Both the position numbers and the translations under genes were made by a program. A DNA stretch of 64,000 bases from positions 326 to 64,325 of the forward strand of contig JBDRLN010000064.1 of assembly GCA_043812955.1 (NCBI GenBank), read 5' to 3'. How positions within the stretch are numbered: the first letter of the stretch is position 1; each line of letters opens with the position of its first letter. Positions 41,259-56,056 of this stretch are shown here, in pieces. Below the pieces are notes generated by a model. It saw only the letters and a program-made list of their open reading frames with translations, searched no databases and had not been told where the DNA came from. The DNA comes from Candidatus Omnitrophota bacterium (lineage in GTDB: Bacteria; Omnitrophota; Gorgyraeia; Gygaellales; Profunditerraquicolaceae).

Positions 41259-41447
41259 ATGTCCAAAACTCAAGAAATCATGACCACCAAAGAGGTAGCT
41301 GACTATTTGCATGTGCACCCCTTAACTGTTCATCGCTATGCCCGAGAAGGTAAGATACCGGCATTTAAAATCGGGACAGACTGGCGTTTTCATCGCAAAT
41401 ATCTGGAAAATTGGATTCGGCAAAAGGTGGACTCAAAAAACAAATGA
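41259..41447 (+). CDS. small HTH_17 (excisionase/MerR-like) DNA-binding protein
   Basis: MTTKEVADYLHVHPLTVHRYAREGKIPAFKIGTDWRF. Confidence 0.65.
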   Translation: MSKTQEIMTTKEVADYLHVHPLTVHRYAREGKIPAFKIGTDWRFHRKYLENWIRQKVDSKNK

Positions 41448-41478: not shown

Positions 41479-42072
41479 ATGTGGTATTGGGTATTTTGCG
41501 CGATATTCTCGGTAATAGGCAGGTCGCTATTTAGATTAAAAGTAGAGGGTCTGGAAAATATACCCTCGAAAACTAATTTTATAATAGTCTCTAATCATAA
41601 TAGTTTTCTTGACCCTTTGGTATTTATGGCGGTTATTCCTAAAAAAGTATATTGCATCGCTTTAAGAGATATCTATAAAATCAACTGGATGTCCTGGTTT
41701 TTAAAGGCCGCGGAGACTTTGCCCAGTGGTAGCGCATCGATTAAAGCAGTAAACCTATTACAGCTGAACAAAAATATAGGTTTATTCCCCGAAGGGGGAA
41801 TCAGTCGTGATGGTAAACTAAAAGAATTCAGAAGGGGCGCTGCTTTATTAGCCTATAAAACCGGACGCCCGATACTCCCTTGTGCGATATTAGGAACCTA
41901 TGAATCGCTTCCTTTTGGCTCACGGATCCCAAGGCTGCGGCCCATAAAACTTAAGATCGGAAAACCTATTTATTTTAGTAAAGAATTCGACGAAGAGATA
42001 GATAGCCTGTCGTTACAAGACGGTATACTCAAAATCAGAACTACGATCAAAGGAATGTTAAATGCAAAATAA
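41479..42072 (+). CDS. plsC: 1-acyl-sn-glycerol-3-phosphate acyltransferase family
   Basis: NHNSFLDP (HX4D) and FPEGG motifs. Confidence 0.8.
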   Translation: MWYWVFCAIFSVIGRSLFRLKVEGLENIPSKTNFIIVSNHNSFLDPLVFMAVIPKKVYCIALRDIYKINWMSWFLKAAETLPSGSASIKAVNLLQLNKNIGLFPEGGISRDGKLKEFRRGAALLAYKTGRPILPCAILGTYESLPFGSRIPRLRPIKLKIGKPIYFSKEFDEEIDSLSLQDGILKIRTTIKGMLNAK

Positions 42073-43633
42073 TGAGTTGTTTGAAATAGCGTTAAGCAGA
42101 GTGATTCCGGCTGAGAAATGGAGAATAATACGCCTGCTGACTAAGGTCTGGGAATTTCCTTCCTACATAGGCTGTGTCAAAGAGGCCTCAGTTATCCAAA
42201 AAAAACATAACACTATGCGCACAAAATGGCGGATCCAGGTAGACCACGTGCCGATCAGTTGGATAGAAGAAGATACTCTGGACCTTAAAGAAAATGCCAT
42301 TTACTTTAAAGCGATTGAAGGAGACTTGCCGGAATTCCAGGGTAAATGGTCATTTTACAGCCATCCTGACGGAACAGAAGTTAAGGTAAATGTCTTTCTT
42401 AAGGTCGGTATACCGGCAATCAACGATTTCGCGGATAATTATATAAAAAAATTAGTCACCAAAAATTTTGAGGCAATTCTAGAGGCAATAGAGCGTAGGC
42501 TGATCTCTACTAAATATTCCAGCTATAAACGCGGCAACAAAAATAAAATAGCTGGGTTCGGCATTATCGCCCATCTATATAATTATTGCCATCTGGAAAA
42601 ATGCCTGACTACTTTAAAACCAGGCATTAAGATGCCTTCCCGGGCTTTCCTGCAGCAGCTATATCAGATTACCCCGTCATTTAAGCTCTACGATATTGGT
42701 AAGTTCACTTCTAAAACCGGTGATACGCTAAAAGGATGTGTAGTCATGGCCACTTTTATCCCGGATATGATAGAGCAGGATCAATGGGCAGTCTTCTCCA
42801 AGATCACTAAGGCCTGCAAGATCGCTGAAAAAAACGGAATAGGGATAGTTACTCTTTCCTGTTTCGCATCGATGGTGCCGCAGAAAATCGACCATAATGT
42901 TTCGGATGATGTGCAGATCCCGATAACCACGGGAAATTCATTTACCGTGGCCATGGTTATGGAATCTTTATTAAAAGCCTGCCGTTTACTGCGTATTGAT
43001 TTAAAGCATTCAAAATGCGCTATTATCGGAGGCTGCGGAGATATCGGAAGCGCCTGTGCTCAGATCCTAACAGAAAAGGTAAATCAACTTTGTCTTGCCG
43101 GCAGAACTCCTGCGAAGCTAAAAAGTTTAAGCGATGAACTTACCCGTAAACACAAAGCTAAAATAATCACAAGTACTGATAATGAATTGGCGATTAAGGA
43201 TGCAGATATAGTGATTTGCGCGGCTAACCCCAGCGCCTCAATCATAAACATTAACTGGTTTAAGCCCGGAGCTGTAATCTGCGACGTAGGATACCCTAAA
43301 AATACTCCATATTTTTCCAGCCGCGAAGATATTTTAATATTCTCCGGTGGTTTGGTAAAATCCCCGACACCAATAAATTTCCCAATAGATATGGGCCTGC
43401 CTGCCCCGGATATCCTCTATGCCGCTTATGCCGAAGGTATAATACTGGCATTTGAAAAAAGATATGAAAATTTCACTCCGGAAAAAGGAAATATTACCCC
43501 AGAAATGGTTGATGAGATAAAAAAACTCGGGGCTAGGCATGGATTCGAAACAGCGGACTTTTACTGGGAAGGAAAATTGATCAGCGCTGAAAAGATCAAT
43601 AAAATAAAGAAAATCAAACAATTGATAAAATAA
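42062..43633 (+). CDS. fusion protein: N-terminal SRPBCC (polyketide cyclase/START-like) domain + full acyl-ACP reductase (AAR, cyanobacterial aldehyde-forming type) domain
   Basis: AAR-like blocks FGIIAHLYN, TTGNSFTVAMV, IIGGCGDIGSACAQIL, ICDVGYPKN, LYAAYAEGIILAFE, ARHGFE align with Synechococcus AAR; N-terminal ~170 aa resembles the SRPBCC ligand-binding fold. Confidence 0.65.
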   Translation: MQNNELFEIALSRVIPAEKWRIIRLLTKVWEFPSYIGCVKEASVIQKKHNTMRTKWRIQVDHVPISWIEEDTLDLKENAIYFKAIEGDLPEFQGKWSFYSHPDGTEVKVNVFLKVGIPAINDFADNYIKKLVTKNFEAILEAIERRLISTKYSSYKRGNKNKIAGFGIIAHLYNYCHLEKCLTTLKPGIKMPSRAFLQQLYQITPSFKLYDIGKFTSKTGDTLKGCVVMATFIPDMIEQDQWAVFSKITKACKIAEKNGIGIVTLSCFASMVPQKIDHNVSDDVQIPITTGNSFTVAMVMESLLKACRLLRIDLKHSKCAIIGGCGDIGSACAQILTEKVNQLCLAGRTPAKLKSLSDELTRKHKAKIITSTDNELAIKDADIVICAANPSASIININWFKPGAVICDVGYPKNTPYFSSREDILIFSGGLVKSPTPINFPIDMGLPAPDILYAAYAEGIILAFEKRYENFTPEKGNITPEMVDEIKKLGARHGFETADFYWEGKLISAEKINKIKKIKQLIK

Positions 43634-43643
43634 TTAATATTCA

Positions 43644-44741
43644 ATGAAAAAAGTTAAACCTCATTTTGCTTTTTTAATTCACCCGCCAGAACTTAAGGAT
43701 GTTTCTAAGCGATACCCTATTGCTAATTATATACCTGGATTTATCTTGGAAAAGATCCTTCGGATTTTACCACCGCTGATCGGAACGCAGATAACCGGTT
43801 TTAAATTAAACGGTAAAGAAATCCCGGGCATAATAGTAATTTGCCCACTCACAGCCCAACAAATGTTAAAATATCCGCAGCTCGCAGAGAAAAAGGTTAC
43901 TCAAAGCGTTCTCCTGGCTGAACGCCTGGGTTGCGAGTATATCGGCCTAGGTGCCTTTACCTCCATAGCTACAGATGGAGGTCTAAGTTTAATAAATAAG
44001 GTTAATAATATTAAATTAACTTCAGGTAACGTTTATGCCGCTGCCCTTATTATTGAAAATATTCAAAAAGCTGCCAAAATATTAAATACGGACATTTCTA
44101 AAGCCAGTCTGGCGATCGTAGGCGCCGCAGGTTCAGTTGGTTCGGCCTGCTCAAGAATACTCAGTAAAAAAGTAAATAAGATCATACTTATTGACAAAAG
44201 GTTCGATGAATTAGGCAAAATAGCGCAAGTTATAAAATCTAATAATAACCAGATCGATCTCGAATATTATCCCAATATACCATCGCCTATCCATGCGGAT
44301 ATCGTGGTTTCTGTTGCTAGCGCGTCAAAAGGTATAATTGAATCCTCACATCTAAGGCCAGGCACTATTGTTATTGATGCAGCTCAACCTCATAATGTTT
44401 CAGCAAAAGTCCTGGAAACGCGCAATGATGTAATAATCATCCATTCCGGAATAGCATATTTAGCGGGAATAGATTTACAAATGAACATCGGCCTGAACAA
44501 AGAAGAGATCTATGCCTGCCTGGGAGAAGTGTTAATGCTTATGTATCGAAACTGGGATAATCACTATAGCCTGGGGCCAGTAAATCCCGAACTTGTAGAA
44601 GAAGTACTGGTATATGCGCCGAAAATCGGATTACGGGTAGCTGATTTTCGTAATGGAAAAAAAATGGTTAAAGATGAAGATATTATTAGAGTAATAAAGA
44701 GTTGTCATAGCGGAGAGAAAAATGGCTTATCAAGTCTGTAA
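43644..44741 (+). CDS. acyl-ACP reductase (AAR) family paralog, stand-alone
   Basis: FAFLIHPPELKDV, LGAFTSI, VGAAGSVGSACSRIL, YACLGEVLMLMYRNWDNHYSLG match AAR blocks. Confidence 0.7.
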   Translation: MKKVKPHFAFLIHPPELKDVSKRYPIANYIPGFILEKILRILPPLIGTQITGFKLNGKEIPGIIVICPLTAQQMLKYPQLAEKKVTQSVLLAERLGCEYIGLGAFTSIATDGGLSLINKVNNIKLTSGNVYAAALIIENIQKAAKILNTDISKASLAIVGAAGSVGSACSRILSKKVNKIILIDKRFDELGKIAQVIKSNNNQIDLEYYPNIPSPIHADIVVSVASASKGIIESSHLRPGTIVIDAAQPHNVSAKVLETRNDVIIIHSGIAYLAGIDLQMNIGLNKEEIYACLGEVLMLMYRNWDNHYSLGPVNPELVEEVLVYAPKIGLRVADFRNGKKMVKDEDIIRVIKSCHSGEKNGLSSL

Positions 44742-45756
44742 TAAGTGTATTCTTGATACAAATATCCCTTATATTAATTTTAATAACGACGGTGTTTGTA
44801 ATATATGCGTTGATCATCAAAAGGCTCTAACGGGTGAGCCGATTAAAGATTACGAAAGGTTAGAGAAAAAATTCGCAAAATTGGTAAAAACAAATAATAA
44901 AAAAATCAAGTATGACTGTTTATGCCTTTATAGCGGAGGCAAAGACAGCACTAATATGCTTTATAACCTAGTAAAAAAACACAATCTTAAAGTGTTGGCT
45001 TTTACGCTGGATAACTGGTTTCTCTCAAAACAAACCTACTCCAATATCAATAAGGTTTTATCGAAATTGAATATTGATCATATAATTTTCAAACCTTCCT
45101 GGAACTTAACGGAATCTTTATTTAAATCCGGGATTTATAAGACTGGAAATTCAAAAGAAGCTCAAAAAATGTCATTTCTGATAGGCCATGTTTGCTGGCC
45201 TTGTTTTGTTATGATTAGTATTTTTTCAATCAAAACAGCTTTAGAAAAGAATATACCCAATATTATAGTCGGCACTACTCCCGGTCAGCTTACCCAAAAG
45301 GAGAGCACTCTTTTAAGTAAATATTCCGGAATAACTGATGTGTATAAAAAAATGATACTCCCTTTTTTAAAAATACTGGATAACGATGAAAAATATTATT
45401 TGAATTTATCGCTGGGTGAAAAACTCAAGAGCCTAAAGCTTAAACTTGTACCTTTTTATGAATACCATCGATATTGCGAAGAAGACGTTTTTAAAACAGT
45501 TGAAACTGAATTTGGATGGCAAAAACCGCAGGATACTGATTCCTGCAGCAGTAATTGCTCGATTAATTCCCTGGGCATATTAATTCATAGGAAAAAATAT
45601 AATATCAGTCCGTATTTAATCCCCCTGGCTCATGATGTAAGGGAAGGCTTAGTAAATCGGGAGAAGGCCATGAGCGATACATCTTCAGTCATCGACGAAA
45701 ATCTGGCGCGGGATATGGCGGCAAAACTGAATATTAACTGCGAAGACATCTTATGA
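44722..45756 (+). CDS. N-acetyl sugar amidotransferase-like PP-loop ATP pyrophosphatase (WbuX/PseA-like)
   Basis: N-terminal Cys cluster CNKC...CNIC followed by the PP-loop YSGGKDST. Confidence 0.65.
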   Translation: MAYQVCNKCILDTNIPYINFNNDGVCNICVDHQKALTGEPIKDYERLEKKFAKLVKTNNKKIKYDCLCLYSGGKDSTNMLYNLVKKHNLKVLAFTLDNWFLSKQTYSNINKVLSKLNIDHIIFKPSWNLTESLFKSGIYKTGNSKEAQKMSFLIGHVCWPCFVMISIFSIKTALEKNIPNIIVGTTPGQLTQKESTLLSKYSGITDVYKKMILPFLKILDNDEKYYLNLSLGEKLKSLKLKLVPFYEYHRYCEEDVFKTVETEFGWQKPQDTDSCSSNCSINSLGILIHRKKYNISPYLIPLAHDVREGLVNREKAMSDTSSVIDENLARDMAAKLNINCEDIL

Positions 45757-47960
45757 GCTTTAGATTAATTAATTATATTATTTCTTATGCTCTAGTGGGC
45801 ACGGTATTAACCTACCTGGCTTGCTTTATTTATTTCAGAGACAGAAAAAACTGGTTATTCAAAATTTTCGCTCTTTACAATTTATCTATCGCCTGGTGGT
45901 GCATTTTCTCAATACCTGCAATAATAGCCCCTAATAACGAGACCGGCGTATTGTGGTGCAGAATATTTATCAGCGGCGTTATTTTTATGCCCACCCTGGT
46001 TCTGCATTGCGCTTATTTACTATTAGGATATTCAGATAATAATAAATGTAAACTTATATTAAAAATATCCTACCTGTTATCTTTTATATTTTTACTTTTA
46101 AACTTTACGCCTTTTTTAATTCCAGCGGCTGAAAAAAAGTCGACTTTACTTTCTTATACGGTACCGGGACCGTTTTTTCATCTTCATGTTTTACACTTCT
46201 TTTTTATTATGCTCTACGCAGAAACCCTTTATTTAACCCATTATTTAAAAATCAGGGTTAAGGAAAAAATAGAAAGCAGGAAATACCTGTATTATTTTCT
46301 TTCATCTGTCATAGCTACTTTAGGCGGTGGCGCCAATTATCTTCCTGTTTATAGGTTTGAAATTCCATTCCTGAATCCTTACGGGACATATACAATTCTT
46401 TTATACGCCTCAGTTGTTACTTATACAATTATCCGCTACCGCTTTCTAAATACGTCTGTTATTATTACTCGCGCGGGTATATTTTTAGGTGTTTACGCTA
46501 TTGTCCTGGGATGCCCGTTTATCCTCGCAACCTCAGGGAAAAGCCCTCTTGTCAATCTATTCGGCCCGCTTTGGTGGGCCGGGCCGTTGGTTTTAATGGC
46601 TTCTTTGGGGACCTTGGGACCGTTTGTTTATATCTCCCTGCGCAAAAAAGCCGATGCCATACTCTTAAGAGAACAGCTGCGCTATCAGGATATCTTAAAA
46701 CTGGCGGCAGTAGATATGACCCGGATCCGCAACCTGCAAAAATTACTGGATTTTATTGCCCAAATCATCACTGAATCTGTGCGCATTTCCCATTCAGTAA
46801 TATATTATTTTAATCCGGAGAGTAAGCGTTTTGAATTGAAAGCCGGGATCAACTTAAATAAAAACCAGCCAACTGTAATCGATAATAAAAATAAGTTAGC
46901 CGCTTGGCTCGAGAAAAACAAACTGCCTCTGGTTTATGAAGAGATTAGAGATAGATCTAAAAATCATCCTGAATTTGTGGAATTAGAAAAACAGATGCGT
47001 TTGTTAAATGCTGATGTGGCTTTACCCTGTATCCTGGAGAATAAATTACTGGATATTATTATATTGGGGAAGAAGCTTTCAGGAAATATCTATACCTCTG
47101 ACGATCTGGATAACTTCCTTACTTTAGCAAAAGAAACCGCCTTGGCTACGGAAAATGCCCAACTATATGGGAAAATAGAGGAAGATGTGAAGCAAAGGAC
47201 CAAAGACCTGGTGGAGCTTCAAAAACAACTTATCCAGGCAGAAAAATTAGCCACCGTAGGTACGCTTGCTGGCGGCGTAGCCCATGAAATAAATAATCCC
47301 CTGACTGCGATCTTAACTAATGTCCAGATGCTCTTAAGATCGGATGAGTTAGATAAAGAGTCGCTAGAGATGATCGAAGAAGCGACTAAACGCTGCAAGA
47401 CTATTGTTCAGAAATTAATGGTTTACGCCAAAAAACCGCATCAGGAAACAATCGCTCCTTCTAAGATAAATTTAAAGGATACTCTTAATAGCGCTATCGC
47501 CTTCCTGAAATATCAATTTGAGCAGGATAATATAAAAATCAATATCGATGCCCTCAGGGATACTTATTTAGTTGAAGGCAACCAGAATGAGCTAGAGCAG
47601 GTAATAACCAACATAATACTCAATGCCAAAGATGCCATTAAACAAATTAAAAAAAGTGGTATAATAGAGTTGTCTCTAACGCAAACTGAAAGTTCGGTTA
47701 AAGTTGAAATCAAGGATGATGGAGTAGGAATTTCTAAAGATATAATCAACCGGATATTTGACCCTTTTTTTACCACTAAAGACGTGGGTAAAGGCTTAGG
47801 CCTGGGACTTTCGATCTGCCAATCTATCCTGGAAAAACATAAAGGAAAAATCACGGTCCGCTCTGAAATTAATAAAGGAGCGGTGTTTACTATTATATTA
47901 CCCGGCTTAAAAGATATCGACAGAGCAAATAGCTTAAAAGATGGAGGCCGCAATGGCTAA
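45753..47960 (+). CDS. sensor histidine kinase: multi-TM (7TM-type) N-terminal domain + GAF + HisKA + HATPase
   Basis: 7-8 TM helices; H-box AHEINNPLTAI; G-boxes DDGVGI and GKGLGLGLSI. Confidence 0.85.
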   Translation: MSFRLINYIISYALVGTVLTYLACFIYFRDRKNWLFKIFALYNLSIAWWCIFSIPAIIAPNNETGVLWCRIFISGVIFMPTLVLHCAYLLLGYSDNNKCKLILKISYLLSFIFLLLNFTPFLIPAAEKKSTLLSYTVPGPFFHLHVLHFFFIMLYAETLYLTHYLKIRVKEKIESRKYLYYFLSSVIATLGGGANYLPVYRFEIPFLNPYGTYTILLYASVVTYTIIRYRFLNTSVIITRAGIFLGVYAIVLGCPFILATSGKSPLVNLFGPLWWAGPLVLMASLGTLGPFVYISLRKKADAILLREQLRYQDILKLAAVDMTRIRNLQKLLDFIAQIITESVRISHSVIYYFNPESKRFELKAGINLNKNQPTVIDNKNKLAAWLEKNKLPLVYEEIRDRSKNHPEFVELEKQMRLLNADVALPCILENKLLDIIILGKKLSGNIYTSDDLDNFLTLAKETALATENAQLYGKIEEDVKQRTKDLVELQKQLIQAEKLATVGTLAGGVAHEINNPLTAILTNVQMLLRSDELDKESLEMIEEATKRCKTIVQKLMVYAKKPHQETIAPSKINLKDTLNSAIAFLKYQFEQDNIKINIDALRDTYLVEGNQNELEQVITNIILNAKDAIKQIKKSGIIELSLTQTESSVKVEIKDDGVGISKDIINRIFDPFFTTKDVGKGLGLGLSICQSILEKHKGKITVRSEINKGAVFTIILPGLKDIDRANSLKDGGRNG

Positions 47961-48336
47961 AAGGATCCTGATAGTTGATGATGAAGCAATGATAACCAAG
48001 AGCCTGAAAAAACTACTCACTAAAGAAGGTTTTGAGCCAGTCATTGTCTCAGGAGGCAACGAGGCATTGGGCCAGGTAAAAACTAATGACTTTGATTTGT
48101 TGATTATAGACATACGTATGCCCCAGATGGATGGGATTGAAACGATCCGGGCGATCAGAGAGTATATGGCGGTAGAAGGCAAAGATCCTATACCGGAAAT
48201 TGTTATCACCGGCTATGCTGATGAAAATAAATATAAATGCGCGGTTGACTTAAAAGTAAACGCCTATATCTATAAACCATTTGATACCAGCGAGTTCCTT
48301 GGCACAATAAGAGAAGTTCTAGAGAAAAACCCTTAG
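47941..48336 (+). CDS. stand-alone response-regulator receiver (CheY-like) protein
   Basis: ILIVDDE ... LLIIDIRMPQMDG receiver motifs; no output domain. Confidence 0.85.
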   Translation: MEAAMAKRILIVDDEAMITKSLKKLLTKEGFEPVIVSGGNEALGQVKTNDFDLLIIDIRMPQMDGIETIRAIREYMAVEGKDPIPEIVITGYADENKYKCAVDLKVNAYIYKPFDTSEFLGTIREVLEKNP

Positions 48337-48339: not shown

Positions 48340-49566
48340 ATGAACAAAGCAGTCATTACAGGAGTCGGGGTAATTGCTCCAAACGGGATCGGTAAAGAGG
48401 AATACTGGAAAGCCTTGAAAAGCGGTACATCCGGGATAAGGCCGATCAGTGTTTTTGATTCCAGCTTATTTAAGGCCCACTTAGCCGCGGAAGTAATTAA
48501 TTTTGATCCGGTAACCTATTTGGGAGACAAGGGTTTAAGAAATCTGGACCGGGGAACTAAATTCCTTTGTTCCGCGGCCAAATTAGCCATAGACGACGCC
48601 AAGCTAGAGATTAACGATGATAATTCTAATGACATCGGAGTTGTTACAGCTACAACCTTGTCCGTTATCTGGAATATCTCCACATTCAGTAAAGAAGCCG
48701 AAGACGAAGGCCCTCAATTCGTAAACCCGGCCATGTTTCCCGGAACAACCATTAATGCCCCTTCAAGCCAGGTATCCATAAGATTCAATATAAAAGGCTT
48801 TAATACTACTATCTCCACAGGCTTTACCGCAGGTTTAGACAGCCTTAGGTACGCTATTGATTTTATTAAACTTGGCCGGGCAAAAGCGATTTTAGTCGCT
48901 GGAGTAGAATCTCTTTTTTTTCAGACCTTTGTTGGTTTCCATAAACTGGAATTCCTGGCCGGTATTAAAGGAGAAGAGGTATGCGCTCCTTTTGACCTGC
49001 GTAGAAACGGTATCATAATTGGAGAGGGGAGCGCCGTACTGATCCTGGAAAACGAAAAAGACGCTTTAAAAAGAAAAGCTAAAATATATGCTGAAGTTTC
49101 CGCGGTCGAGAATTTCTTCGACCCTTTTCGCAGCGGCAGATATAATCCCAAGGCCGAAGGATTAAAACGCTCAATTACCCATTCTTTAAAAAAAGCAAAA
49201 ATAAAAAACAGCGAAATAAATTATATCTCATCTTCTGCTAACTCAGTTCCGGCGCAGGATATGTTAGAAACTAAAGCGATTAAAGATGTTTTTGAAAACC
49301 AAGCAAGGAACATTCCGATTAGCTCTATTAAATCTATGATTGGAGAAGCGGTAAGCGCGTCAGGGATATTGCAGGTTGCTGCGTGTTTAGGGGCTATGGA
49401 GAATAATTTCATACCTCCGACCATAAATTACCAAGCACCTGACCCGGCTTGCGATTTAGATTATGTCCCCAATAAATCCCGGGATAAAAGGGTAGAAAAA
49501 GCCTTAATAACTAATTTTGGTCCGGGCGGAAACAATGCCGCAGCCATCATTGTGAAATATGAATAA
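48340..49566 (+). CDS. beta-ketoacyl synthase homolog lacking the catalytic Cys-His-His triad (KSbeta/chain-length-factor-like)
   Basis: Thiolase/KS fold, but the active-site position reads TGFTAGL (no Cys) and His positions read SSSANS / GEAVSASG. Confidence 0.75.
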   Translation: MNKAVITGVGVIAPNGIGKEEYWKALKSGTSGIRPISVFDSSLFKAHLAAEVINFDPVTYLGDKGLRNLDRGTKFLCSAAKLAIDDAKLEINDDNSNDIGVVTATTLSVIWNISTFSKEAEDEGPQFVNPAMFPGTTINAPSSQVSIRFNIKGFNTTISTGFTAGLDSLRYAIDFIKLGRAKAILVAGVESLFFQTFVGFHKLEFLAGIKGEEVCAPFDLRRNGIIIGEGSAVLILENEKDALKRKAKIYAEVSAVENFFDPFRSGRYNPKAEGLKRSITHSLKKAKIKNSEINYISSSANSVPAQDMLETKAIKDVFENQARNIPISSIKSMIGEAVSASGILQVAACLGAMENNFIPPTINYQAPDPACDLDYVPNKSRDKRVEKALITNFGPGGNNAAAIIVKYE

Positions 49567-50776
49567 GAATACCAGAATAGTAGTTACCGGCTTAGGAGTG
49601 ATCTCTGCTATCGGGATCGGAAAAAAGCAATTTTGGGATGCCGCACTTGCCGGGACATCCGGGATCAGCGATATCGTTTCTGTAGACACTACTGGTTTTA
49701 AATGCCATCGTGGCGGAGAAGTCAAAGATTTCCATCCTGAAGATTTTATTCCTAAAAGAAAGGTTAAATATCTTGGCCGGGCTTCACAACTGGCTATTGC
49801 CGCTGCTAAATTAGCCATTGAAGATAGCGGAATTGTATTTAAAGAAATACCTAAAACAAAACTAGGTGTCCTCGTGGGCACTACTATGGGCGAAAAACCT
49901 GTGGAAGAATTAATTCAGTCCTGGGTAAAAGGCGGATTAAAAGATTTAGACCGGCGCAGGATCCTTCAGGCCTCAGCCAATAATATATCGGCCAATGTAG
50001 CTTTGTATTTTAAAGCCAAAGCTCAGAATTATCTTTTTCCAACAGCCTGCGCAGCCGGAAACTACGCTATTGGATATGGATTTGATTTGATTAAAAGCGG
50101 CAGCTTGGATTTTGTTTTAGCCGGAGGGGCAGAACCTTTTTCTTATACCGCTTATATGGGTTTTCAACGGCTTTACGCCATGGCAACTGATAAATGCCAA
50201 CCCTTTGATAAAAACCGCAAAGGAATGATGTTAGGCGAAGGTTCAGGAATGCTTCTTTTAGAAAAACTGAAGTCAGCCCTGGAAAGAGGGGCGAATATCT
50301 ACGCCGAGATCTTAGGATACAGCCTATCCTGCGATGCCCATCATCCTACAGCTCCTGAAGTTGGCGGGATTTCTATGGTTATGGAAAAAGCCCTAAAGGA
50401 AACTAATATTTCTTATAAAGACGTTGATTATATCTGTTCTCACGGCACCGGCACACCGATGAATGATAAGGTTGAATCCCAGGCAATTAAGAATGTATTT
50501 AAAGAACGCTATAAAGATATACCGGTAAATTCCCTAAAATCAATGCTCGGACATAGCATGGGCGCTGCCTCAGCGATTGAGGCTTTATCCTGTTGCTTGT
50601 CGGTAAAAGAGGACCTGATCCCGCCGACTATAAATTACGAAACCCCTGACCCGGATTGCGATATAGATTGTGTCCCGAATGTCAAAAGAGAAAAAATTGT
50701 GAATATCGCCTTTAATAACGGTTTTGCTTTTGGCGGGAATAATTCCTGTTTAGTGATTAAAAAATTCATTAAATAA
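49559..50776 (+). CDS. beta-ketoacyl-ACP synthase (KAS II/FabF-like, KSalpha partner) with intact Cys-His-His
   Basis: PTACAAGNYAIG (Cys), CSHGTGTPMND (His), GHSMGAAS (His); overlaps the upstream KS by 8 nt. Confidence 0.85.
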   Translation: MNKNTRIVVTGLGVISAIGIGKKQFWDAALAGTSGISDIVSVDTTGFKCHRGGEVKDFHPEDFIPKRKVKYLGRASQLAIAAAKLAIEDSGIVFKEIPKTKLGVLVGTTMGEKPVEELIQSWVKGGLKDLDRRRILQASANNISANVALYFKAKAQNYLFPTACAAGNYAIGYGFDLIKSGSLDFVLAGGAEPFSYTAYMGFQRLYAMATDKCQPFDKNRKGMMLGEGSGMLLLEKLKSALERGANIYAEILGYSLSCDAHHPTAPEVGGISMVMEKALKETNISYKDVDYICSHGTGTPMNDKVESQAIKNVFKERYKDIPVNSLKSMLGHSMGAASAIEALSCCLSVKEDLIPPTINYETPDPDCDIDCVPNVKREKIVNIAFNNGFAFGGNNSCLVIKKFIK

Positions 50777-50921
50777 GTGAGGGCATAAGTTATGGAGCTG
50801 GACATAATAAACAAGGCGTCCGCCACAAAGTCGCCACAGGAATTGGCGACCCGCCAAGCTATGTGGAGGGATCGGCGGATCCGCCAATATTTATGGCGGA
50901 ACATAACTTATATATCCATAC

Positions 50922-51038
50922 TTATCCCGCCCTTTTGGCGTGATAAAAAACAAATTCTATCAAAAAAGCGGGATTAATTCGCAGACGGCCTTGCGGCCTA
51001 CGAATTGCGTCGTAAGAATCACTCCCTAAGTCGTCTGC
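50922..51038 (+). ncRNA. candidate structured 5'-leader element (copy B) upstream of the ACP gene: TCCCGC...GCGGGATTAATTCGCAGACGG-GGCCTTGCGGCC-...-CGTCTGC
   Basis: Homologous core with 16252-16344; outer helix GCAGACGG (50981-50988) / CGTCTGC (51032-51038) ends 5 nt before the RBS AAAGGAG. Confidence 0.4.
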
Positions 51039-51058
51039 TCATTAAAGGAGAGTATAAA

Positions 51059-51310
51059 ATGGCAAAAGACAACTTTACAGAAATAAAAAAAGATGTCAAA
51101 AATAAGGTTTCGGAGATCATTGAGGTTGGGGAAGAGAAGTTAAAAGATGAAACCAAATTCGTGGAAGACCTGGGAGTTGACAGCATGATGGCGCTGGAGA
51201 TCGTCGCCAGCATAGAGAAAAAATACAAGATCAGCATTCCCGAAGCGGACATACCCAAGATCCGCTGCCTTAATGATATCTACACAGTGCTTGAAAAAAC
51301 ATTGAAATGA
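51059..51310 (+). CDS. acyl carrier protein (discrete, cluster-associated)
   Basis: LGVDSMMALEIV phosphopantetheine-attachment motif (DSM variant); RBS AAAGGAGAG; 83 aa. Confidence 0.8.
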   Translation: MAKDNFTEIKKDVKNKVSEIIEVGEEKLKDETKFVEDLGVDSMMALEIVASIEKKYKISIPEADIPKIRCLNDIYTVLEKTLK

Positions 51311-51344
51311 AAATAATCGCTTTTCCCAATTATGAGGTGATAAA

Positions 51345-51791
51345 GTGAGTAACATATGGGATATAAATAAAATCCAGGAGATCCTGCCCCAAAGATATCC
51401 TTTTTTATTCATTGATAGCGTAGTAGAGATAAATGAAGAGGAAGGAAAGGTATCCTGCCTGAAAAACGTAAGTATTAATGATTACTTCTTTAGGGGGCAT
51501 TTTCCCGGAAACCCGGTTATGCCGGGAGTTATCATTATTGAGGCAATGGCCCAAGCCAGCATTATTCTTTACGCGGCTTTAAAACCGGAAATCGCCGTCA
51601 AACACCCGGTTTATTACCTGGGTAACGTGGATATCAAATTCCTCAAACCCGTATTGCCCGGCAACCAGCTTATCCTGCAAATTTCCAAAGAAAAAATAAT
51701 GGATAAGGCAGGCATTGTCAGCGCTGAGGCAAAAGTAAATAATGCAGTTGTAGCCAAAGGCAGGATTACCTTCGGGGTTCAGCCTAAATAA
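51345..51791 (+). CDS. 3-hydroxyacyl-ACP dehydratase (FabZ/FabA hotdog family)
   Basis: YPFLFIDSV ... FFRGHFPGNPVMPGVIIIEAMAQ. Confidence 0.85.
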   Translation: MSNIWDINKIQEILPQRYPFLFIDSVVEINEEEGKVSCLKNVSINDYFFRGHFPGNPVMPGVIIIEAMAQASIILYAALKPEIAVKHPVYYLGNVDIKFLKPVLPGNQLILQISKEKIMDKAGIVSAEAKVNNAVVAKGRITFGVQPK

Positions 51792-51869
51792 AATTATTGA
51801 CAAACGCGTAAATCCCATTTATAATCGTTCTTAGAAAGTATACATTAATGTTAACTAACAAGGAACGAT

Positions 51870-52550
51870 ATGGAAAAAGAATATGCCCTCAATCTATCCT
51901 CCCAAATCGGAATTGACGTACAGCAGGTGGTCAGAGAAGAGATCGAGCTTATTTTCCTTAAGGCCCTTTTTGAATCAAAAATTTCAGATTCATTAGTTTT
52001 TAAGGGCGGCACAGCCCTGCGGCTTATATATAATTCGCCGCGTTTCTCAGAGGACCTCGATTTTTCCCTGACTGCCGCGATAACCTACCGTGATTTTAAA
52101 ACAATAATTTCCAGGATAATCAAATCGGATGATCGTTTTTCCATAAACGACCTGGCTGAAAAATTTTACACCTGCCTGGCTGAAATCCGGGTAAAAGAAG
52201 CCTGGATGGACCAGGCATTCTCGCTTAAAATCGAAGTATCTAAACGCCCGGAAAAAATAAAATCAGCGAATCTCGCAAATATGCTGGCAAAATCTCCCGC
52301 TACCAACTTAATGGTCATGACTAAGGTATATACGCTTAAAAAGATACTTGAAGATAAACAGCGTTTGCTTTCCGAACGAAAAATGCCCCGGGACATCTTT
52401 GATACCTGGTATATCTGCCAAAAAACCGGGGAACCATTTACTTTTAAACAATTCGGTTATCCCAAAGGAAAAATCCGCCAGGAATTAAGAAAATTTCTTC
52501 CCCGCGGTTTTTACTCGGTTATTGATGAACTGGAGAAATTAAATGCTTAA
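51870..52550 (+). CDS. AbiEii/AbiGii-family nucleotidyltransferase (type IV TA toxin-like)
   Basis: FKGGTALRLIYNSPRFSEDLDFS nucleotidyltransferase motif. Confidence 0.6.
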   Translation: MEKEYALNLSSQIGIDVQQVVREEIELIFLKALFESKISDSLVFKGGTALRLIYNSPRFSEDLDFSLTAAITYRDFKTIISRIIKSDDRFSINDLAEKFYTCLAEIRVKEAWMDQAFSLKIEVSKRPEKIKSANLANMLAKSPATNLMVMTKVYTLKKILEDKQRLLSERKMPRDIFDTWYICQKTGEPFTFKQFGYPKGKIRQELRKFLPRGFYSVIDELEKLNA

Positions 52551-53124
52551 GGTATATGAAGCCCTGCTTAATTTAGATAAACGCTACCTTAGCGCCAGGG
52601 AAATAGCGCGCATACTCAATATCAGCTCCGGAAATAGAAAAGTATCGATAAGCAGGCTTACAAAGAGGAAGATACTGCGTAGGCTCAGGCGCAATCTTTA
52701 CGAAGTATCGCTAAAACCAACGGATATCCTTGAAGCCGCTAACAGCGTTTACCAACCGAGTTATCTTTCATTTACCTATTGCCTGGGCAAACTCGGGTTA
52801 TTGAACCAGATCGCTTATGAAATAGAATTTGCCACCCCAAAGAAAACAAAGAGGATTGAAATCCGCGGCCGCGGCGTGATCTTCCGCAAAATTAAAAAAG
52901 AATTATTTTTTGGTTACGAGCTTAACGACAATATTTTTACAGCGAAGCCTGAGAAGGCGCTTTTGGATACATTATATTTAAAAACAAAAGGCCTGGCGGT
53001 TATCAATGAGAAAGAACTTAATCTTAAAGATATTAATAAACAGAAAATAATCACGATGAGCAGGAAATTTCCGCTCAAAGTCCAGCAAGAAACAAAAAAA
53101 CTTATTTCAAAATATGTCAAATAA
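52543..53124 (+). CDS. AbiEi-like antitoxin/transcriptional regulator (winged-helix N-domain)
   Basis: N-domain LSAREIARILNIS...RLTKRKILRRLRRNLYEV resembles the AbiEi antitoxin domain; 8-nt overlap with the upstream NTase gene. Confidence 0.5.
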   Translation: MLKVYEALLNLDKRYLSAREIARILNISSGNRKVSISRLTKRKILRRLRRNLYEVSLKPTDILEAANSVYQPSYLSFTYCLGKLGLLNQIAYEIEFATPKKTKRIEIRGRGVIFRKIKKELFFGYELNDNIFTAKPEKALLDTLYLKTKGLAVINEKELNLKDINKQKIITMSRKFPLKVQQETKKLISKYVK

Positions 53125-54214
53125 ACCCGCGATATTCCTGACCGGAGCTACGGGATTAGTCGGATCATACCTATTAAAACTATTCCTGGAAAAAAACCAT
53201 AAAGTTTTTGCCTTAGGCAGGGGTAAAAACGAGAAAACTACCATAGAAAGGGTAATGGAGGTTTTGAGATTCTGGGATAAAAATATACCAAACAGCAAAA
53301 TTAATAATCTCCAGATTATAGAAGGCGACGTAGCTGAAAATAATCTAGGGCTGGATAAAAACAGCAGAAAAATGCTGGCTCTGGAGACAGAAGAAATCTT
53401 CCATTCCGCAGCTATCACTGATCTGCACCGGCCGATAAAAGAAATCAACAAGGTCAACGTAGGTGGCACCAGAAACATCATGATTTTCGCTGAAAAACTG
53501 AATAAAGAACGCCTGGTAAAAGTAAATCACATCAGCACCGCTTATATTTACGGCAATTATAGGGGCGTATTCAAGGAAGATTCCCTAGACGTCAAACAGA
53601 AATTTAATACCAATTATGAAAGTTCCAAGTTCGAAGCCGAAAAACTGATCAGTGAATTCCGCAAGAAAGGACTTTGGATAGATATTTTTCGGCCGTCAAT
53701 GGTTACCGGAGACACCAAAACCGGAAAGACCTTCCAATTCCGCCATATCTACCAATTCATTAACCTCTGCTGCTTAGAAATATTTGACACCCTGCCGCTG
53801 AAAAACGGTAGGGTAAGCTTGGTTCCTATAGATGTTTTCTCCGAAGCCGCGTATGTTATAACCAGGAAGAACCGGGCCAAATGCGCGAATTATCATCCTT
53901 TTCCGGCTAAACTGGTCAGCGTGGAGAAAATCGTTGATTTAGGCCATCAGATCATTGGCTTTAAGAAGCCAAAATTGGTCCTGCCCGAAGAATTCCGGAT
54001 GGATACCCTGACTCCTTCCCAGAGATTAATTCTACGGGGAACTATTCTGGCAATAAACTTCCAGACTAAGCTTAATTCTAACTATACTAAGCAAATCTTA
54101 AAAAAATATCATTTTAATATGCCTGAAATCACCAATAAATTGCTGGCTAAGAATATTGAATATTTCAAGGATAATATCCGAATCGGAGGCGTCTACCATG
54201 ACCGGAAGATTTGA
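53114..54214 (+). CDS. thioester-reductase (TR) domain protein / fatty acyl reductase (NAD_binding_4, SDR-type)
   Basis: IFLTGATGLVGSYLL Rossmann motif; FHSAAITD...NVGGTRNIM...VNHISTAYIYG matches TR-domain blocks. Confidence 0.7.
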   Translation: MSNKPAIFLTGATGLVGSYLLKLFLEKNHKVFALGRGKNEKTTIERVMEVLRFWDKNIPNSKINNLQIIEGDVAENNLGLDKNSRKMLALETEEIFHSAAITDLHRPIKEINKVNVGGTRNIMIFAEKLNKERLVKVNHISTAYIYGNYRGVFKEDSLDVKQKFNTNYESSKFEAEKLISEFRKKGLWIDIFRPSMVTGDTKTGKTFQFRHIYQFINLCCLEIFDTLPLKNGRVSLVPIDVFSEAAYVITRKNRAKCANYHPFPAKLVSVEKIVDLGHQIIGFKKPKLVLPEEFRMDTLTPSQRLILRGTILAINFQTKLNSNYTKQILKKYHFNMPEITNKLLAKNIEYFKDNIRIGGVYHDRKI

Positions 54215-55472
54215 TTACATAATCGTGGGCGCCGGCCTCTGCGGACTTACTTTAGCCAAAGGACTTAGCCAGAAAAACAAAAAAGTCCTGGTCTTGGAAC
54301 AGGGTGGCTATATTAAGAAATTTGGCAATTTATTATACGCAGCTTCAATTTACGATAAATTCACTCTATCTAAAAGTAGACAGGGATTTATAATTCTGCG
54401 CTCATTTGGAGTAGGCGGAACAAGCATAGTCAGCTGCGGCAATGCCGTGGAATTTCCTGAGGAAGAAATAAATAAGATAGGTATAGATTTCCGCAGCGAA
54501 TTGGATTCAGCAAAAAAAGAATGCTGCCAAACCACCAAACACCCTATTGGAAAAGCTTCAATGAAGATAATGAAAACTGCTAATCAATTAGGATACGATA
54601 TGCAACCAATGCCCAAACTCGGTTTAGAAAAATGTGTATCTTGTGGCAATTGCATTTTAGGGTGCGGTCATCTGGCAAAATGGACTGCAGCAGAATACCT
54701 CAAAGATATTAATAAACATGATGTTTGTATAATTACCGGTTTTAAAGTCAAAAAGGTATTGAGCTCCGCTGGTAAAGCAATAGGAATAGAAGGAAGCGGT
54801 GGTTTATTCTCAAGTCAAAAATATTTTTCCGATAAAATAATCCTTTCTGCCGGAGGTATCGGTACTCCGATCATATTGCAAAAATCAGGAGTAGAAGAAG
54901 CTGGAAAAAGTCTTTTTGTGGATTTTTTCACCAATATATACGGGATCAATAAAGAATTTAACCAGGCTAAAGAAGTAAGTATGTCGGTGGTCTGCGCAAA
55001 ATTTCACAAGAAAGACGGCTTTATACTTTCACCTTTTATTGACAGTTCAATCGGGCTTTTAGCCTGCGTTGAGATTAAACACGCCGGTTACGCTCTAAAG
55101 CTAAATAGCCTGATGGGATTAATGAATAAAATTAACGATGATAATGTTGGCCGGGTTTATCCCAACGGCGCTGTTGACAAAGCACTCACTCAAAATGACT
55201 GGAAAAAATTAAGAAAAGGCAATGAAATAGCTACAGAAATCCTGATTAAAAGCGGGGTGAATCCTAAGAGTATATTTATTACCTTGCCCAGAGGAGCGCA
55301 TCCCGGAGGAACAGCTGCTATTGGTAAAGTTGTAAATACCAGCTTAGAGACTAAAATAAAAAATCTTTACGTTTGTGATTGCAGTGTATTACCGGAAGCT
55401 CCCGGTTTTCCGCCAATCTTGACCCTGATCGCCATTTCCAAATGGTTTGCTAAGAATGTTTTGTTGAAATAA
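54198..55472 (+). CDS. GMC-family FAD-dependent oxidoreductase-like protein
   Basis: N-terminus DYIIVGAGLCGLTLA (FAD fingerprint); C-terminal GGTAAIGKVVNTSLETKIKNLYVCDCSVLP resembles the GMC C-terminal motif; start at 54198 after RBS GGAGG. Confidence 0.55.
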   Translation: MTGRFDYIIVGAGLCGLTLAKGLSQKNKKVLVLEQGGYIKKFGNLLYAASIYDKFTLSKSRQGFIILRSFGVGGTSIVSCGNAVEFPEEEINKIGIDFRSELDSAKKECCQTTKHPIGKASMKIMKTANQLGYDMQPMPKLGLEKCVSCGNCILGCGHLAKWTAAEYLKDINKHDVCIITGFKVKKVLSSAGKAIGIEGSGGLFSSQKYFSDKIILSAGGIGTPIILQKSGVEEAGKSLFVDFFTNIYGINKEFNQAKEVSMSVVCAKFHKKDGFILSPFIDSSIGLLACVEIKHAGYALKLNSLMGLMNKINDDNVGRVYPNGAVDKALTQNDWKKLRKGNEIATEILIKSGVNPKSIFITLPRGAHPGGTAAIGKVVNTSLETKIKNLYVCDCSVLPEAPGFPPILTLIAISKWFAKNVLLK

Positions 55473-56056
55473 TGAGCATATTAAAATTAATTAAACAAAG
55501 AACAGCGGTTAGAAAGTATAAAAATAAAGCTATTTCTGCTAAAAGAATAGCAAAAATAATAGAGGCTGGAATATGGGGCCCGTCTATTCATGGTATACAA
55601 TCTTGGAAATTCGTAATAGTACATAATAAAAACATAATTAATAAAATTTCGAATATAACGGCTAAAAAATCTAAAAAAATTAATATTCCAACTTTTATTT
55701 CAATTCCGACTATAAAAGCACTCGCCAGTACAGAAATACTCATTTGCATATATAATACCAGAAAATTTAGCTTATTTGCCAGTAGATTAAATAAGTTATA
55801 TAAGAAGAATGCTGAAGTTGCAGAATTATCAGCAATTTCGGCAGCTATTCAGAATATGATTCTTACTGCAGAAGACCTTAAAATTGGGTCGTGTTGGCTA
55901 GATATGCCATTGTTCTGCAAAGAGGATATCAGCCATATAATAAAAGAACCTACAGGAGAATTAGTAGCGCTTTTAACTCTAGGGTATGCTGTCGACACAA
56001 GAAAATATAGAACACCACGTAAAATAACTAAAGAAACAGTTAGGTATCTAAAATAG
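55472..56056 (+). CDS. nitroreductase-family flavoprotein
   Basis: LIKQRTAVRKYKNKAIS N-terminal nitroreductase motif; size ~190 aa. Confidence 0.65.
   Translation: MSILKLIKQRTAVRKYKNKAISAKRIAKIIEAGIWGPSIHGIQSWKFVIVHNKNIINKISNITAKKSKKINIPTFISIPTIKALASTEILICIYNTRKFSLFASRLNKLYKKNAEVAELSAISAAIQNMILTAEDLKIGSCWLDMPLFCKEDISHIIKEPTGELVALLTLGYAVDTRKYRTPRKITKETVRYLK

Follow-up and report, generated by a model that had tools for sequence, protein, structure and literature searches.

An SRPBCC–AAR-fold fusion protein with alanine at the catalytic cysteine position, beside a cysteine-bearing paralog, in a kinase-linked gene module of Candidatus Omnitrophota

To our knowledge, nearly all that has been described of acyl-ACP (acyl carrier protein) reductase (AAR) concerns cyanobacteria, where it catalyses the first step of alkane synthesis; PigE-type enzymes and the terminal amidation domain (TAD) are the few other relatives that have been studied. 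Here, we describe two adjacent genes for proteins of this fold in a 64,000-nt stretch of Candidatus Omnitrophota DNA (contig JBDRLN010000064.1, assembly GCA_043812955.1, forward-strand positions 326-64,325), referred to as the window. The first, open reading frame 1 (ORF1; 42062-43633, + strand, 523 residues), encodes an AAR-fold protein that carries an N-terminal SRPBCC domain and has an alanine in place of the catalytic cysteine. The second, ORF2 (43644-44741, + strand, 365 residues), encodes a stand-alone protein that retains the cysteine. Both genes had been placed at these positions by a first-pass annotation made from the DNA sequence alone. The identical NCBI proteins are MFH1397943.1 ("SRPBCC family protein") for ORF1 and MFH1397944.1 ("hypothetical protein") for ORF2, both from a 71-kb MAG (metagenome-assembled genome) contig of Candidatus Omnitrophota.

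In AAR, Cys294 is the acyl acceptor, and a C294S mutant is unable to form the thioester; the NADPH site comprises the loop 162-GATGDIG-168, with the phosphate held by R189, R193 and R314; Y247 belongs to the GYPKN motif; and the substrate tunnel opens at Y23/Y26 on the N-terminal domain, which is the docking site of the aldehyde-deformylating oxygenase (ADO) (PMC7089970). The same acyl-acceptor role has been assigned to a conserved cysteine of PigE (C296; PMC8341465) and of the TAD (C2238; bioRxiv 2024.10.28.620694). In PigE, an aldehyde-receiving domain is fused to the AAR-like reductase, which provides a precedent for in-chain hand-off (PMC8341465). A precedent for the pairing of a fatty-acyl reductase with an AGPAT/PlsC-type acyltransferase is ElbD of Myxococcus xanthus, an enzyme of bacterial ether-lipid synthesis that also has acyl-activating and carrier-protein parts and to which an aldehyde intermediate has been linked (PMC9131029). 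Homologs of ElbD have been reported to be common in Omnitrophota MAGs (bioRxiv 2024.06.25.600576).

ORF1 has a two-part organization. Its N-terminal ligand-binding domain of the SRPBCC (START/Bet v 1) fold covers approximately residues 1-160 (42062-42541), of which residues 25-138 pass the Pfam Polyketide_cyc model PF03364 with 46.8 bits against a gathering threshold of 23.4 (E 4.5e-12); this part matches TTHA0849 (PDB 2d4r) at E 4.8e-13. In an AlphaFold model of ORF1 obtained from a 64-sequence alignment (pLDDT 91.2, pTM 0.85), it consists of a beta-strand, two alpha-helices, six beta-strands and a long alpha-helix, the order of a helix-grip fold. In Foldseek comparisons, the target TM-score is 0.93 to TTHA0849 and 0.74-0.78 to TcmN and ZhuI. 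Judged by the pTM of the model, the SRPBCC and AAR domains are held in a definite arrangement relative to each other. The AAR-fold part (42542-43633) matches the acyl-ACP reductase model TIGR04058 over residues ~166-518 with 141.0 bits (E 5.5e-41) and the PigE model NF053554 with 144 bits, the latter match being confined to the N-terminal ~350 of 837 model positions. Among PDB sequences, the best match of ORF1 is the S. elongatus AAR (E 5e-29), followed by PigE (4PPM) and the CarI TAD (9E4X), and AAR also ranks first in Foldseek (6jzy, E 7e-26, target TM-score 0.85). Membership in an unrelated Rossmann family (shikimate dehydrogenase, glutamyl-tRNA reductase or ornithine cyclodeaminase) was rejected, as these families reach 20-35 bits and match the generic NAD-binding part only. 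For instance, hemA scores 26.9 bits and aroE 21.4 bits, as compared with 141 bits for the AAR model, and the Pfam Shikimate_DH match spans the generic Rossmann part alone. Shikimate and leucine dehydrogenases appear in Foldseek at E 1e-4 to 1e-6 with TM-scores of 0.3-0.45, about 15 orders of magnitude behind AAR.

The AAR motifs of ORF1 (FGIIAHL, TTGN, GGCGDIGSAC, GYPKN and RHGFE) are all present, and the equivalents of R189 and E297 are retained. At the three positions that hold the NADPH phosphate in AAR (R189, R193 and R314), ORF1 has R, K and K, consistent with the use of NADPH. The exception is the nucleophile. At the Cys294 column ORF1 has Ala455 (codon GCT, 43424-43426), as found in three independent alignments (phmmer against 6jzq, MAFFT, and BLASTP against ORF2), the agreement of which led us to reject an alignment artefact. 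With its nucleophile replaced by alanine, ORF1 would therefore not form an acyl-enzyme. The gene is not a decaying pseudogene; we rejected this possibility because dN/dS is ~0.06 in both domains. This value comes from a comparison with locus L001 (pN 0.09, pS 0.65), in which the SRPBCC domain alone gives 0.04. Such strong purifying selection on both domains argues that ORF1 is functional, though not as a covalent catalyst. The cysteines C252, C332 and C407 are invariant in 120-121 of 121 fusion clusters and have no counterpart in cyanobacterial AAR. C325, in the GGCGDIG loop where the family has Thr, and C267, in LSCFAS where the family has a near-invariant Gly (LGGFTS), are lineage-specific.

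ORF2 scores 100.9 bits against TIGR04058 (E 8.8e-29) and 134 bits against the N-terminal ~350 positions of the PigE model. Its best matches among PDB sequences are AAR chains (E 3.6e-23), followed by PigE 4PPM and CarI TAD 9E4X. The AlphaFold model of ORF2, obtained from a 61-sequence alignment, has a pLDDT of 94.6 and a pTM of 0.92, and Foldseek places it close to both AAR (6jzy, E 2e-21, target TM-score 0.82) and the CarI TAD (E 1e-20, query TM-score 0.77-0.79). Cys292 (codon 44517-44519) is invariant in the 61-sequence family alignment. The remaining motifs are degenerate: FAFLIHP, TSGN, GAAGSVGSAC, AAQPHN in place of GYPKN, and KIGLR in place of RHGF. The R189, R193 and R314 positions are taken in ORF2 by K, E and P, and Asp184 stands before them where beta-2 ends. 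The Asp184-Lys pair stands where AAR has Ala-Arg189, and Asp184 aligns with the TAD aspartate ("itlcD") that excludes NADP. The site thus resembles an NAD-type site rather than that of AAR. The AAR half of ORF1 and ORF2 share 26% identity (BLASTP, E 1e-34), whereas either protein is 24-27% identical to cyanobacterial AAR. A recent tandem duplication was rejected, given that their mutual distance equals the distance of either to cyanobacterial AAR, and the low identity therefore marks ORF1 and ORF2 as ancient paralogs.

These data bear differently on what the first-pass annotation had proposed. Its assignment of both proteins to the AAR superfamily holds, as TIGR04058 matches both and AAR comes first among PDB sequences and in Foldseek. 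The SRPBCC domain is borne out by PF03364 (46.8 against 23.4 bits) and by the TM-score of 0.93 to TTHA0849. The profile and fold comparison with shikimate dehydrogenase and glutamyl-tRNA reductase, named there as the families that could have displaced AAR, leaves these at least 100 bits weaker. The motif blocks described as common to the two proteins are all found in ORF1, but ORF2 has only degenerate versions of them. A pair of aldehyde-forming reductases is unlikely as stated, because ORF1 has Ala455 for the catalytic cysteine. Orthology with AAR is not supported, since the equivalog cut-off is 449.7 bits and the proteins score 141 and 101, nor are recent tandem paralogs, at 26% identity.

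The fusion is not confined to this genome. Searching 5.8 billion protein sequences with ORF1 returned 563 matches, the best 120 clusters of which are all full-length fusions with 58-90% identity; every named one belongs to Candidatus Omnitrophota. A scan of one genome per species yielded 95 relatives, from which 80 loci were kept (designated by L numbers), all from Omnitrophota or PVC-group MAGs. Across 79 loci the T, G and N of TTGN are found in 79, 79 and 78 proteins, with T in 69 and S in 10 at the second position. The glycines of GxxGDIG and the E297 equivalent are present in 79/79, GYPKN in 78-79/79, the R189 equivalent in 75/79 and the Cys294 equivalent in 74/79. Overall, the sequences of the fusion family suggest a competent NADPH-dependent, cysteine-mediated thioester reductase. 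An HMMER search of 1.84 billion representative sequences found 1,498 superfamily clusters (50% identity) at E <= 1e-10, including the cyanobacterial ones. About 16 representative clusters are fusions, and three carry further N-terminal domains, in the arrangements PilZ-SRPBCC-AAR (P0257, P0259) and HTH_17-PilZ-SRPBCC-AAR (P0255). The PilZ-bearing relatives suggest that the enzyme may be under cyclic di-GMP (c-di-GMP) control in some lineages. In three Planctomycetota/Brocadiia MAGs we also observed a split form, with SRPBCC and AAR encoded by adjacent ORFs in different frames (L077:338-1917, L078:5044-6593 and L079:9995-11541). No paper on an SRPBCC-AAR fusion or on acyl-ACP reductase in Omnitrophota was found in the literature searched, and the COG5322 and HisKA_7TM literature yielded nothing functional for the SRPBCC-AAR family. 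The earlier statement that the fusion is undescribed stands in this sense, but the protein is no one-off: >500 homologs exist, already deposited under the name "SRPBCC family protein", and all that are named belong to Candidatus Omnitrophota. Similarly, the statement that AAR homologs are rare outside cyanobacteria is right in that the superfamily is modest; it is nonetheless real, at 1,498 clusters with the cyanobacterial share included.

Among 121 fusion clusters, Cys is found at the Cys294 column in 107. The 14 Cys-less fusions have Ser at this position, with Ala in this window only. The column varies among Cys, Ser and Ala even within a clade of >82% identity. The Cys-less fusions have conspicuous neighbours: in all ten (10/10) for which the downstream gene is visible, an acyl-handling partner with its own nucleophile adjoins the fusion. 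This partner is a Cys-bearing AAR paralog in five cases (this window, L002, L008, L018 and L091) and a LuxD-like acyltransferase-methyltransferase in five others (L001, L004, L092, L093 and the P0035 locus). The paralog of L091 is itself a second full-length fusion, with Cys. A nucleophile-bearing partner adjoins only ~6 of ~75 Cys-bearing fusions. The sister genome L090 features the same gene order as the window, a fusion 90% identical to ORF1 and an ORF2 that is 94% identical, and its fusion has Cys. Since L090 has the same ORF2 and a Cys-bearing fusion, the partner was acquired first and the cysteine was lost later.

The LuxD-like partner combines an Acyl_transf_2 domain and a UbiE/COQ5-type methyltransferase in ~555-566 residues (L001:11569-13269, L024:11589-13280, L092:6550-8229, L093:6594-8261 and L004:1655-3325). 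It occupies the gene slot downstream of the fusion, mostly where the fusion has Ser for Cys. Extra AAR-fold paralogs are of two kinds, the upstream kind being always Cys-less and the kind found in the downstream slot always Cys-bearing; ORF2 belongs to the downstream kind. Upstream paralogs, of 300-370 residues, lie between the HTH_17 and PlsC genes of other loci (L003, L008, L013, L016, L023, L026, L028, L029, L035, L047, L049, L055, L074, L080, L092 and L093) and are not present in this window, in the whole of which no third AAR-fold copy was found. They feature S, A, T or Q at the nucleophile column and degenerate GxGxxG and GYPKN motifs, and therefore appear pseudoenzyme-like.

ORF1 and ORF2 are part of a head-to-tail run of nine genes with intergenic distances of -20 to +31 nt, from which an operon structure is inferred. 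These nine genes are on the + strand, as are the ACP, FabZ, TR-type reductase and GMC oxidoreductase genes described below. The conserved module opens with a gene for a 62-residue HTH_17/excisionase-type DNA-binding protein (41259-41447; TIGR01764 "excise", 51.2 bits, cut-off 28.8), followed by a PlsC/LPLAT-family acyltransferase of 197 residues (41479-42072; Pfam Acyltransferase, E 8.1e-25; HX4D motif HNSFLD), which overlaps the ORF1 start by 11 nt. ORF2 is followed by a 344-residue homolog of WbuX-like PP-loop amidotransferases (44722-45756; TIGR03573, 130.9 bits, under the cut-off of 203.2), which overlaps both neighbours. Next are a HisKA_7TM sensor histidine kinase (45753-47960; Pfam HisKA_7TM, HisKA and HATPase_c), a stand-alone response-regulator receiver (47941-48336; Pfam Response_reg, E 7.7e-25) and two ketosynthase (KS) genes (48340-49566 and 49559-50776), both of which score as FabF, the second passing the PRK07314 subfamily cut-off. 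After a gap of 282 nt, genes encoding an AcpP-like ACP (~51059-51310, profile match) and FabZ (51345-51791, passing the NF000582 equivalog cut-off) follow. Promoter and terminator scans of the 40.9-52 kb interval gave counts not above those of shuffled controls and are therefore uninformative on the operon.

The small HTH_17 gene also precedes the acyltransferase in L090, L091, L092 and L093. Of the 74 loci with enough upstream sequence, 49 have a PlsC-type gene immediately before the fusion. The most conserved neighbour is the HisKA_7TM kinase, which is on the same strand and no more than 4.5 kb away in 37 of the 41 loci with enough sequence, directly adjacent in 17 of them; in 47 loci the next gene after the kinase encodes a receiver. 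Members of the deep clade L057-L076 (33-44% identity) have no PlsC but keep the kinase. The kinase had been overlooked in the first-pass annotation. The type-II fatty acid synthesis (FAS-II) block is also found after kinase and receiver in L001, L002, L024, L053, L080 and L090; within the flanks analysed, however, a KS block accompanies the fusion in only ~8/80 loci, as compared with 37/41 for the kinase. The WbuX-like gene occurs here and in the sister genome L090 (96% identity) but at none of the other 80 loci, and is a lineage-specific insertion between ORF2 and the kinase.

The region between fusion and kinase forms one variable slot, which may be empty or contain a GMC oxidoreductase, a Male-sterility/thioester-reductase (TR)-type short-chain dehydrogenase/reductase (SDR), a B12-radical SAM protein, the LuxD-like fusion, an AMP-ligase-ACP-PlsC protein (L033) or an AAR-fold paralog. 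TR-type SDRs, some of them extended to 860-920 residues, are directly downstream of the fusion in ~12 loci (L009, L023, L031, L032, L036, L038, L040, L062, L067, L069, L071 and L072). GMC oxidoreductases occupy the slot in ~9 loci, directly downstream in L005, L006, L013, L017, L025, L037 and L051 and with one gene between in L033. Together, one or the other of these two enzyme types adjoins the fusion in at least 20 other genomes. Homologs of these slot genes are present in the window 9-10 kb downstream of the fusion: a 366-residue TR-type SDR (53114-54214; PF07993 (NAD_binding_4), E 5.6e-49; TIGR01746, 149.7 bits) and a 438-residue GMC-family flavin oxidoreductase (54156-55472; GMC_oxred_N and GMC_oxred_C). 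The two enzymes that had been noted downstream are thus real, and since their homologs adjoin the fusion elsewhere, the suggestion that they take part in the same chemistry gains comparative support. The absence of ADO was likewise upheld: no ADO-like sequence was detected in the 64-kb window with an approximate probe, so that this negative is indicative only, and no annotated ORF at 32-63 kb is ferritin-like.

AAR-fold genes, whether fused or stand-alone, repeatedly lie just upstream of signalling genes, often with overlapping stop and start codons. In L081, a gene 62% identical to ORF2 is directly followed by genes encoding a 7TM-GAF kinase, a receiver, an HD(GYP)-type protein, a glycosyltransferase similar to monogalactosyldiacylglycerol (MGDG) synthase and an LpxL-like acyltransferase, the same block as that at 57521-63392 of the window. 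In L082, an ACP gene lies directly upstream of the ORF2-type gene, and ACP, AAR-like and 7TM-GAF kinase genes all overlap. A more distant family (33-36% identity), observed at four loci, two of them named Anaerolineae, features PatA_N, small GTPase, alpha/beta-hydrolase, V4R and hexapeptide proteins, the AAR-like gene, a response regulator (RR)-GGDEF protein and a giant multi-GAF sensor. In Anaerolineae-type loci this sensor has >2,000 residues and many GAF domains. Besides L081 and L082, the loci with signalling genes just downstream of the AAR-fold gene include L084 and L086-L088. At one further stand-alone AAR-like locus no signalling neighbours were seen. The 57521-63392 block of the window (7TM-GAF kinase, receiver, GAF-HD(GYP) protein, MGDG/diglucosyl-diacylglycerol-synthase-like glycosyltransferase and LpxL-like acyltransferase) also occurs in L012, L034 and L081; it is preceded in the window by a CrtI-like amine oxidase gene (56059-57513) and in L081 by the ORF2-type gene.

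Our reading of the locus starts from the observed folds, motifs, cysteine loss, synteny and purifying selection. We favour, tentatively and at somewhat short of even likelihood, the view that ORF1 and ORF2 are anciently diverged members of the AAR/PigE-N/TAD superfamily, whose enzymes act on acyl thioesters, depend on a cysteine and bind NAD(P), within a signalling-coupled module that converts acyl-ACP to fatty aldehyde, ORF2 being the catalyst and ORF1 a non-catalytic partner. Because the fusion family retains all catalytic and NADPH motifs of AAR, acyl-ACP-to-aldehyde chemistry is the most likely. We infer the substrate and product, the cooperation of ORF1 and ORF2, and the roles of the SRPBCC domain and the kinase, including the direction in which the latter acts, as follows. 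In a Cys-bearing fusion, a long-chain acyl group from acyl-ACP would be loaded on the conserved cysteine, and its reduction by NADPH would yield a fatty aldehyde. The next station of the aldehyde would be the hydrophobic SRPBCC domain, a putative built-in holder of product or substrate fused to the N-terminal AAR domain, where the aldehyde-consuming ADO docks in cyanobacteria. The Male-sterility-type reductase or the GMC oxidoreductase could then reduce or oxidise the aldehyde, and the product, along with the PlsC-type acyltransferase, may serve to remodel envelope lipids, controlled by or reporting to the 7TM kinase. In this genome, ORF2, which occupies the variable slot and has a cysteine and an NAD-type site, would supply the thioester chemistry, and ORF1 would persist as a non-catalytic partner that binds acyl or aldehyde groups and NADPH.

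Several points weigh against this reading. The association between cysteine loss and partner genes is coherent, yet built on few independent events: a neighbour-joining tree with Fitch parsimony of the nucleophile column gave three state changes, that is, ~2 losses and one reversal. A Fisher test of cysteine loss against paralog (p 6e-4) is therefore overstated, as it ignores relatedness and was run on an early partial tally of downstream AAR paralogs only (4/6 Cys-less and 4/74 Cys-bearing loci). ORF2 has no GYPKN, including the equivalent of Y247, which AAR needs for substrate binding. This, along with a fold match to TAD as good as that to AAR, makes its reductase status doubtful, and ORF2 may not be a reductase at all. 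The split forms of Planctomycetota lie in another context, followed by genes for a ThDP-dependent enzyme and a BadF/BcrA-type activase (DUF2229) of 1,400-1,700 residues. Instead of the ACP of fatty acid synthesis, acyl-CoA or a dedicated carrier protein could donate the acyl group. Finally, the adjacency of the kinase is silent on the direction of information flow.

The kinase is the starting point of a different explanation, rather unlikely in our estimate and drawn by analogy: the locus would encode a signal-producing enzyme and its receptor kinase, or an output enzyme of signalling, and not bulk lipid synthesis. The AAR-fold protein would make or bind a hydrophobic acyl ligand that the SRPBCC domain presents to HisKA_7TM. 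CqsA and CqsS are such a gene pair of autoinducer synthase and receptor kinase. The conservation of the kinase (37/41 loci) and its persistence in the PlsC-less deep clade L057-L076 are in line with this, as are the stand-alone ORF2-type genes that precede 7TM-GAF kinases (L081, L082) or RR-GGDEF and giant GAF sensor genes (four Anaerolineae-type loci), the PilZ-SRPBCC-AAR and HTH_17-PilZ-SRPBCC-AAR architectures, and the second 7TM-GAF kinase, receiver and GAF-HD(GYP)-type protein within the window. However, adjacency is expected equally if the kinase merely regulates lipid-remodelling genes; DesK/DesR, for instance, regulates the des desaturase. Moreover, a PilZ fusion usually denotes a c-di-GMP-regulated enzyme rather than a signal maker, no HisKA_7TM ligand was found in the literature searched, and PlsC, FAS-II, TR-type reductase and GMC genes are a context of bulk lipid chemistry. 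A broader version, which we consider doubtful, takes the HisKA_7TM kinase and an AAR-fold enzyme, whether or not fused to SRPBCC, as an unrecognised lipid-based signalling unit found across Omnitrophota and echoed in other phyla. Acyl-ACP would be converted to a membrane-active aldehyde or derivative, carried by SRPBCC to the 7TM sensor; alternatively, the enzyme would be an effector, controlled by c-di-GMP and the kinase, that resets envelope lipids. In either case, the Cys-less ORF1 would be a ligand-carrier or pseudoenzyme subunit.

Other explanations concern the chemistry of the two proteins. ORF1 might be an active reductase without a cysteine at position 455, either through direct hydride transfer to the acyl-ACP or acyl-CoA thioester, as in SDR-type TR domains, or through another cysteine (C252, C332, C407, C267 or C325). 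The full set of NADPH and substrate motifs, the dN/dS of ~0.06, the essentially lineage-unique C325 in the dinucleotide loop and C267 for a near-invariant Gly, and the three family-invariant cysteines without an AAR counterpart can be cited in its favour. We nevertheless find it clearly unlikely, as AAR C294S forms no thioester intermediate, the cysteine is invariant across AAR, PigE and TAD, and changes among Cys, Ser and Ala within a clade of >82% identity suggest relaxed constraint, not a redesigned mechanism. For ORF2, a TAD-like NAD-dependent enzyme is conceivable that, with the WbuX-like PP-loop amidotransferase, would use an acyl thioester to form an amide or a different head group that contains nitrogen. 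Its fold match to the CarI TAD equals that to AAR (E 1e-20 and 2e-21), an NAD-type Asp and an invariant Cys are common to both proteins, and the WbuX-like gene, which overlaps ORF2 by 20 nt, resembles N-acetyl-sugar amidotransferases. This proposal seems improbable, given that sequence similarity to TAD is at E 1.3e-5 as compared with 3.6e-23 for AAR, that WbuX is found only here and in the sister genome and not at other ORF2-type loci (L018, L081, L082), that there are no NRPS or PKS neighbours, and that the activity of TAD is itself only proposed (bioRxiv 2024.10.28.620694). The SRPBCC domain could also act as a TcmN-type aromatase/cyclase on a poly-beta-keto chain made by the KS pair and ACP (a type II polyketide synthase), the AAR domain providing reductive release. 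Structural matches to TcmN, ZhuI and WhiE ARO/CYC (E ~1e-10) and the overlapping KS-KS pair, ACP and dehydratase 5 kb downstream fit this scheme, but the best SRPBCC match is the non-cyclase TTHA0849 (TM-score 0.93 against 0.74-0.78), both KSs score as FabF, FabZ passes its equivalog cut-off, the ACP is AcpP-like, and KS blocks are far less frequent at fusion loci (~8/80) than the kinase (37/41). We regard it as very unlikely indeed.

Additional features were observed downstream. FabZ and the TR-type reductase are separated by an inserted AbiEii/AbiEi toxin-antitoxin pair (51870-53124), with a perfect match to the sigma-70 consensus shortly before it (51797-51825); an AbiEii gene is also found after the kinase in L092. 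The gene set at 48340-57513 comprises two FabF-like KSs, ACP, FabZ, TR-type reductase, GMC oxidoreductase, nitroreductase and CrtI-like desaturase, and may be tagged as "ladderane-like" by genome-mining tools. "Ladderane" clusters have been reported in Omnitrophota MAGs from the Cariaco Basin (PMC9902471).

The SRPBCC-AAR branch is widespread in a largely uncultured phylum, where it lies amid lipid genes and keeps recurring beside membrane sensor kinases. Of most interest are the loss of the nucleophile beside a Cys-bearing paralog, the Omnitrophota-wide fusion and the recurrent link of the AAR fold to HisKA_7TM, PilZ and GGDEF proteins. If the proposed chemistry is correct, the module would give access to Omnitrophota envelope lipids such as fatty aldehydes, alcohols or ether-type lipids, and would suggest what the orphan HisKA_7TM sensors may bind or control. 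It would also be a natural case of nucleophile loss in which an adjacent paralog has apparently taken over catalysis. The branch would further supply new reductases that form aldehydes and bring their own product-binding domain, of possible use in making fatty aldehydes or alcohols.

Of the described systems, cyanobacterial AAR (6JZQ/6JZU/6JZY) shares its three-domain fold with ORF1 (TM-score 0.85) and ORF2 (0.82) at 24-27% identity. Retained from AAR are TTGN, the GxGDIG loop, the R189-type NADPH site, GYPKN and E297 in ORF1, and the catalytic Cys in ORF2. In contrast to AAR, ORF1 has Ala for Cys294 and an N-terminal SRPBCC domain, and ORF2 has Asp-Lys for Ala-Arg189 and no GYPKN or Y247. With 141.0 and 100.9 bits against the TIGR04058 equivalog cut-off of 449.7, neither is an ortholog, and the genomic partners are a 7TM histidine kinase and a PlsC-type acyltransferase instead of ADO. 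PigE/KecF-type proteins of the prodigiosin MAP pathway (NF053554; 4PPM) are a non-cyanobacterial example of an AAR-like domain with a conserved cysteine (C296) and a fused aldehyde-receiving domain. However, the fused partner is a C-terminal PLP-dependent (class III) aminotransferase in PigE and an N-terminal SRPBCC domain in ORF1, and no pigment or alkaloid cluster is present here. ORF1 (144 bits) and ORF2 (134 bits) match positions ~2-358 of the 837 of the PigE equivalog (at least 850 bits) and have no aminotransferase domain. The TAD of CarI (9E4S/9E4X/9E50) has an AAR-like fold with an invariant Cys by the nicotinamide and an NAD-selecting Asp; ORF2 has both residues, ORF1 neither. Unlike ORF2, which stands alone and shows weak sequence similarity to it (E 1e-5), TAD is the last domain of NRPS modules and dimerizes via an extended N-terminal domain.

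The Omnitrophota module resembles the ElbD system in pairing a reductase with a PlsC-type acyltransferase, to which L033 adds an AMP-ligase-ACP-PlsC protein. The two differ in that the ElbD reductase is a Male-sterility (SDR) domain and not of the AAR fold, and SRPBCC and a kinase link are absent from the ElbD system. SRPBCC/START proteins (TTHA0849, Coq10/RatA-like proteins and TcmN ARO/CYC) feature a helix-grip fold with an aromatic-rich cavity. The ORF1 domain passes their PF03364 model and differs from them in being fused to an oxidoreductase, outside a cyclase context. Judged by sequence, SRPBCC-AAR proteins are a third, uncharacterised branch beside AAR and PigE/TAD, a new architecture in a known enzyme superfamily.

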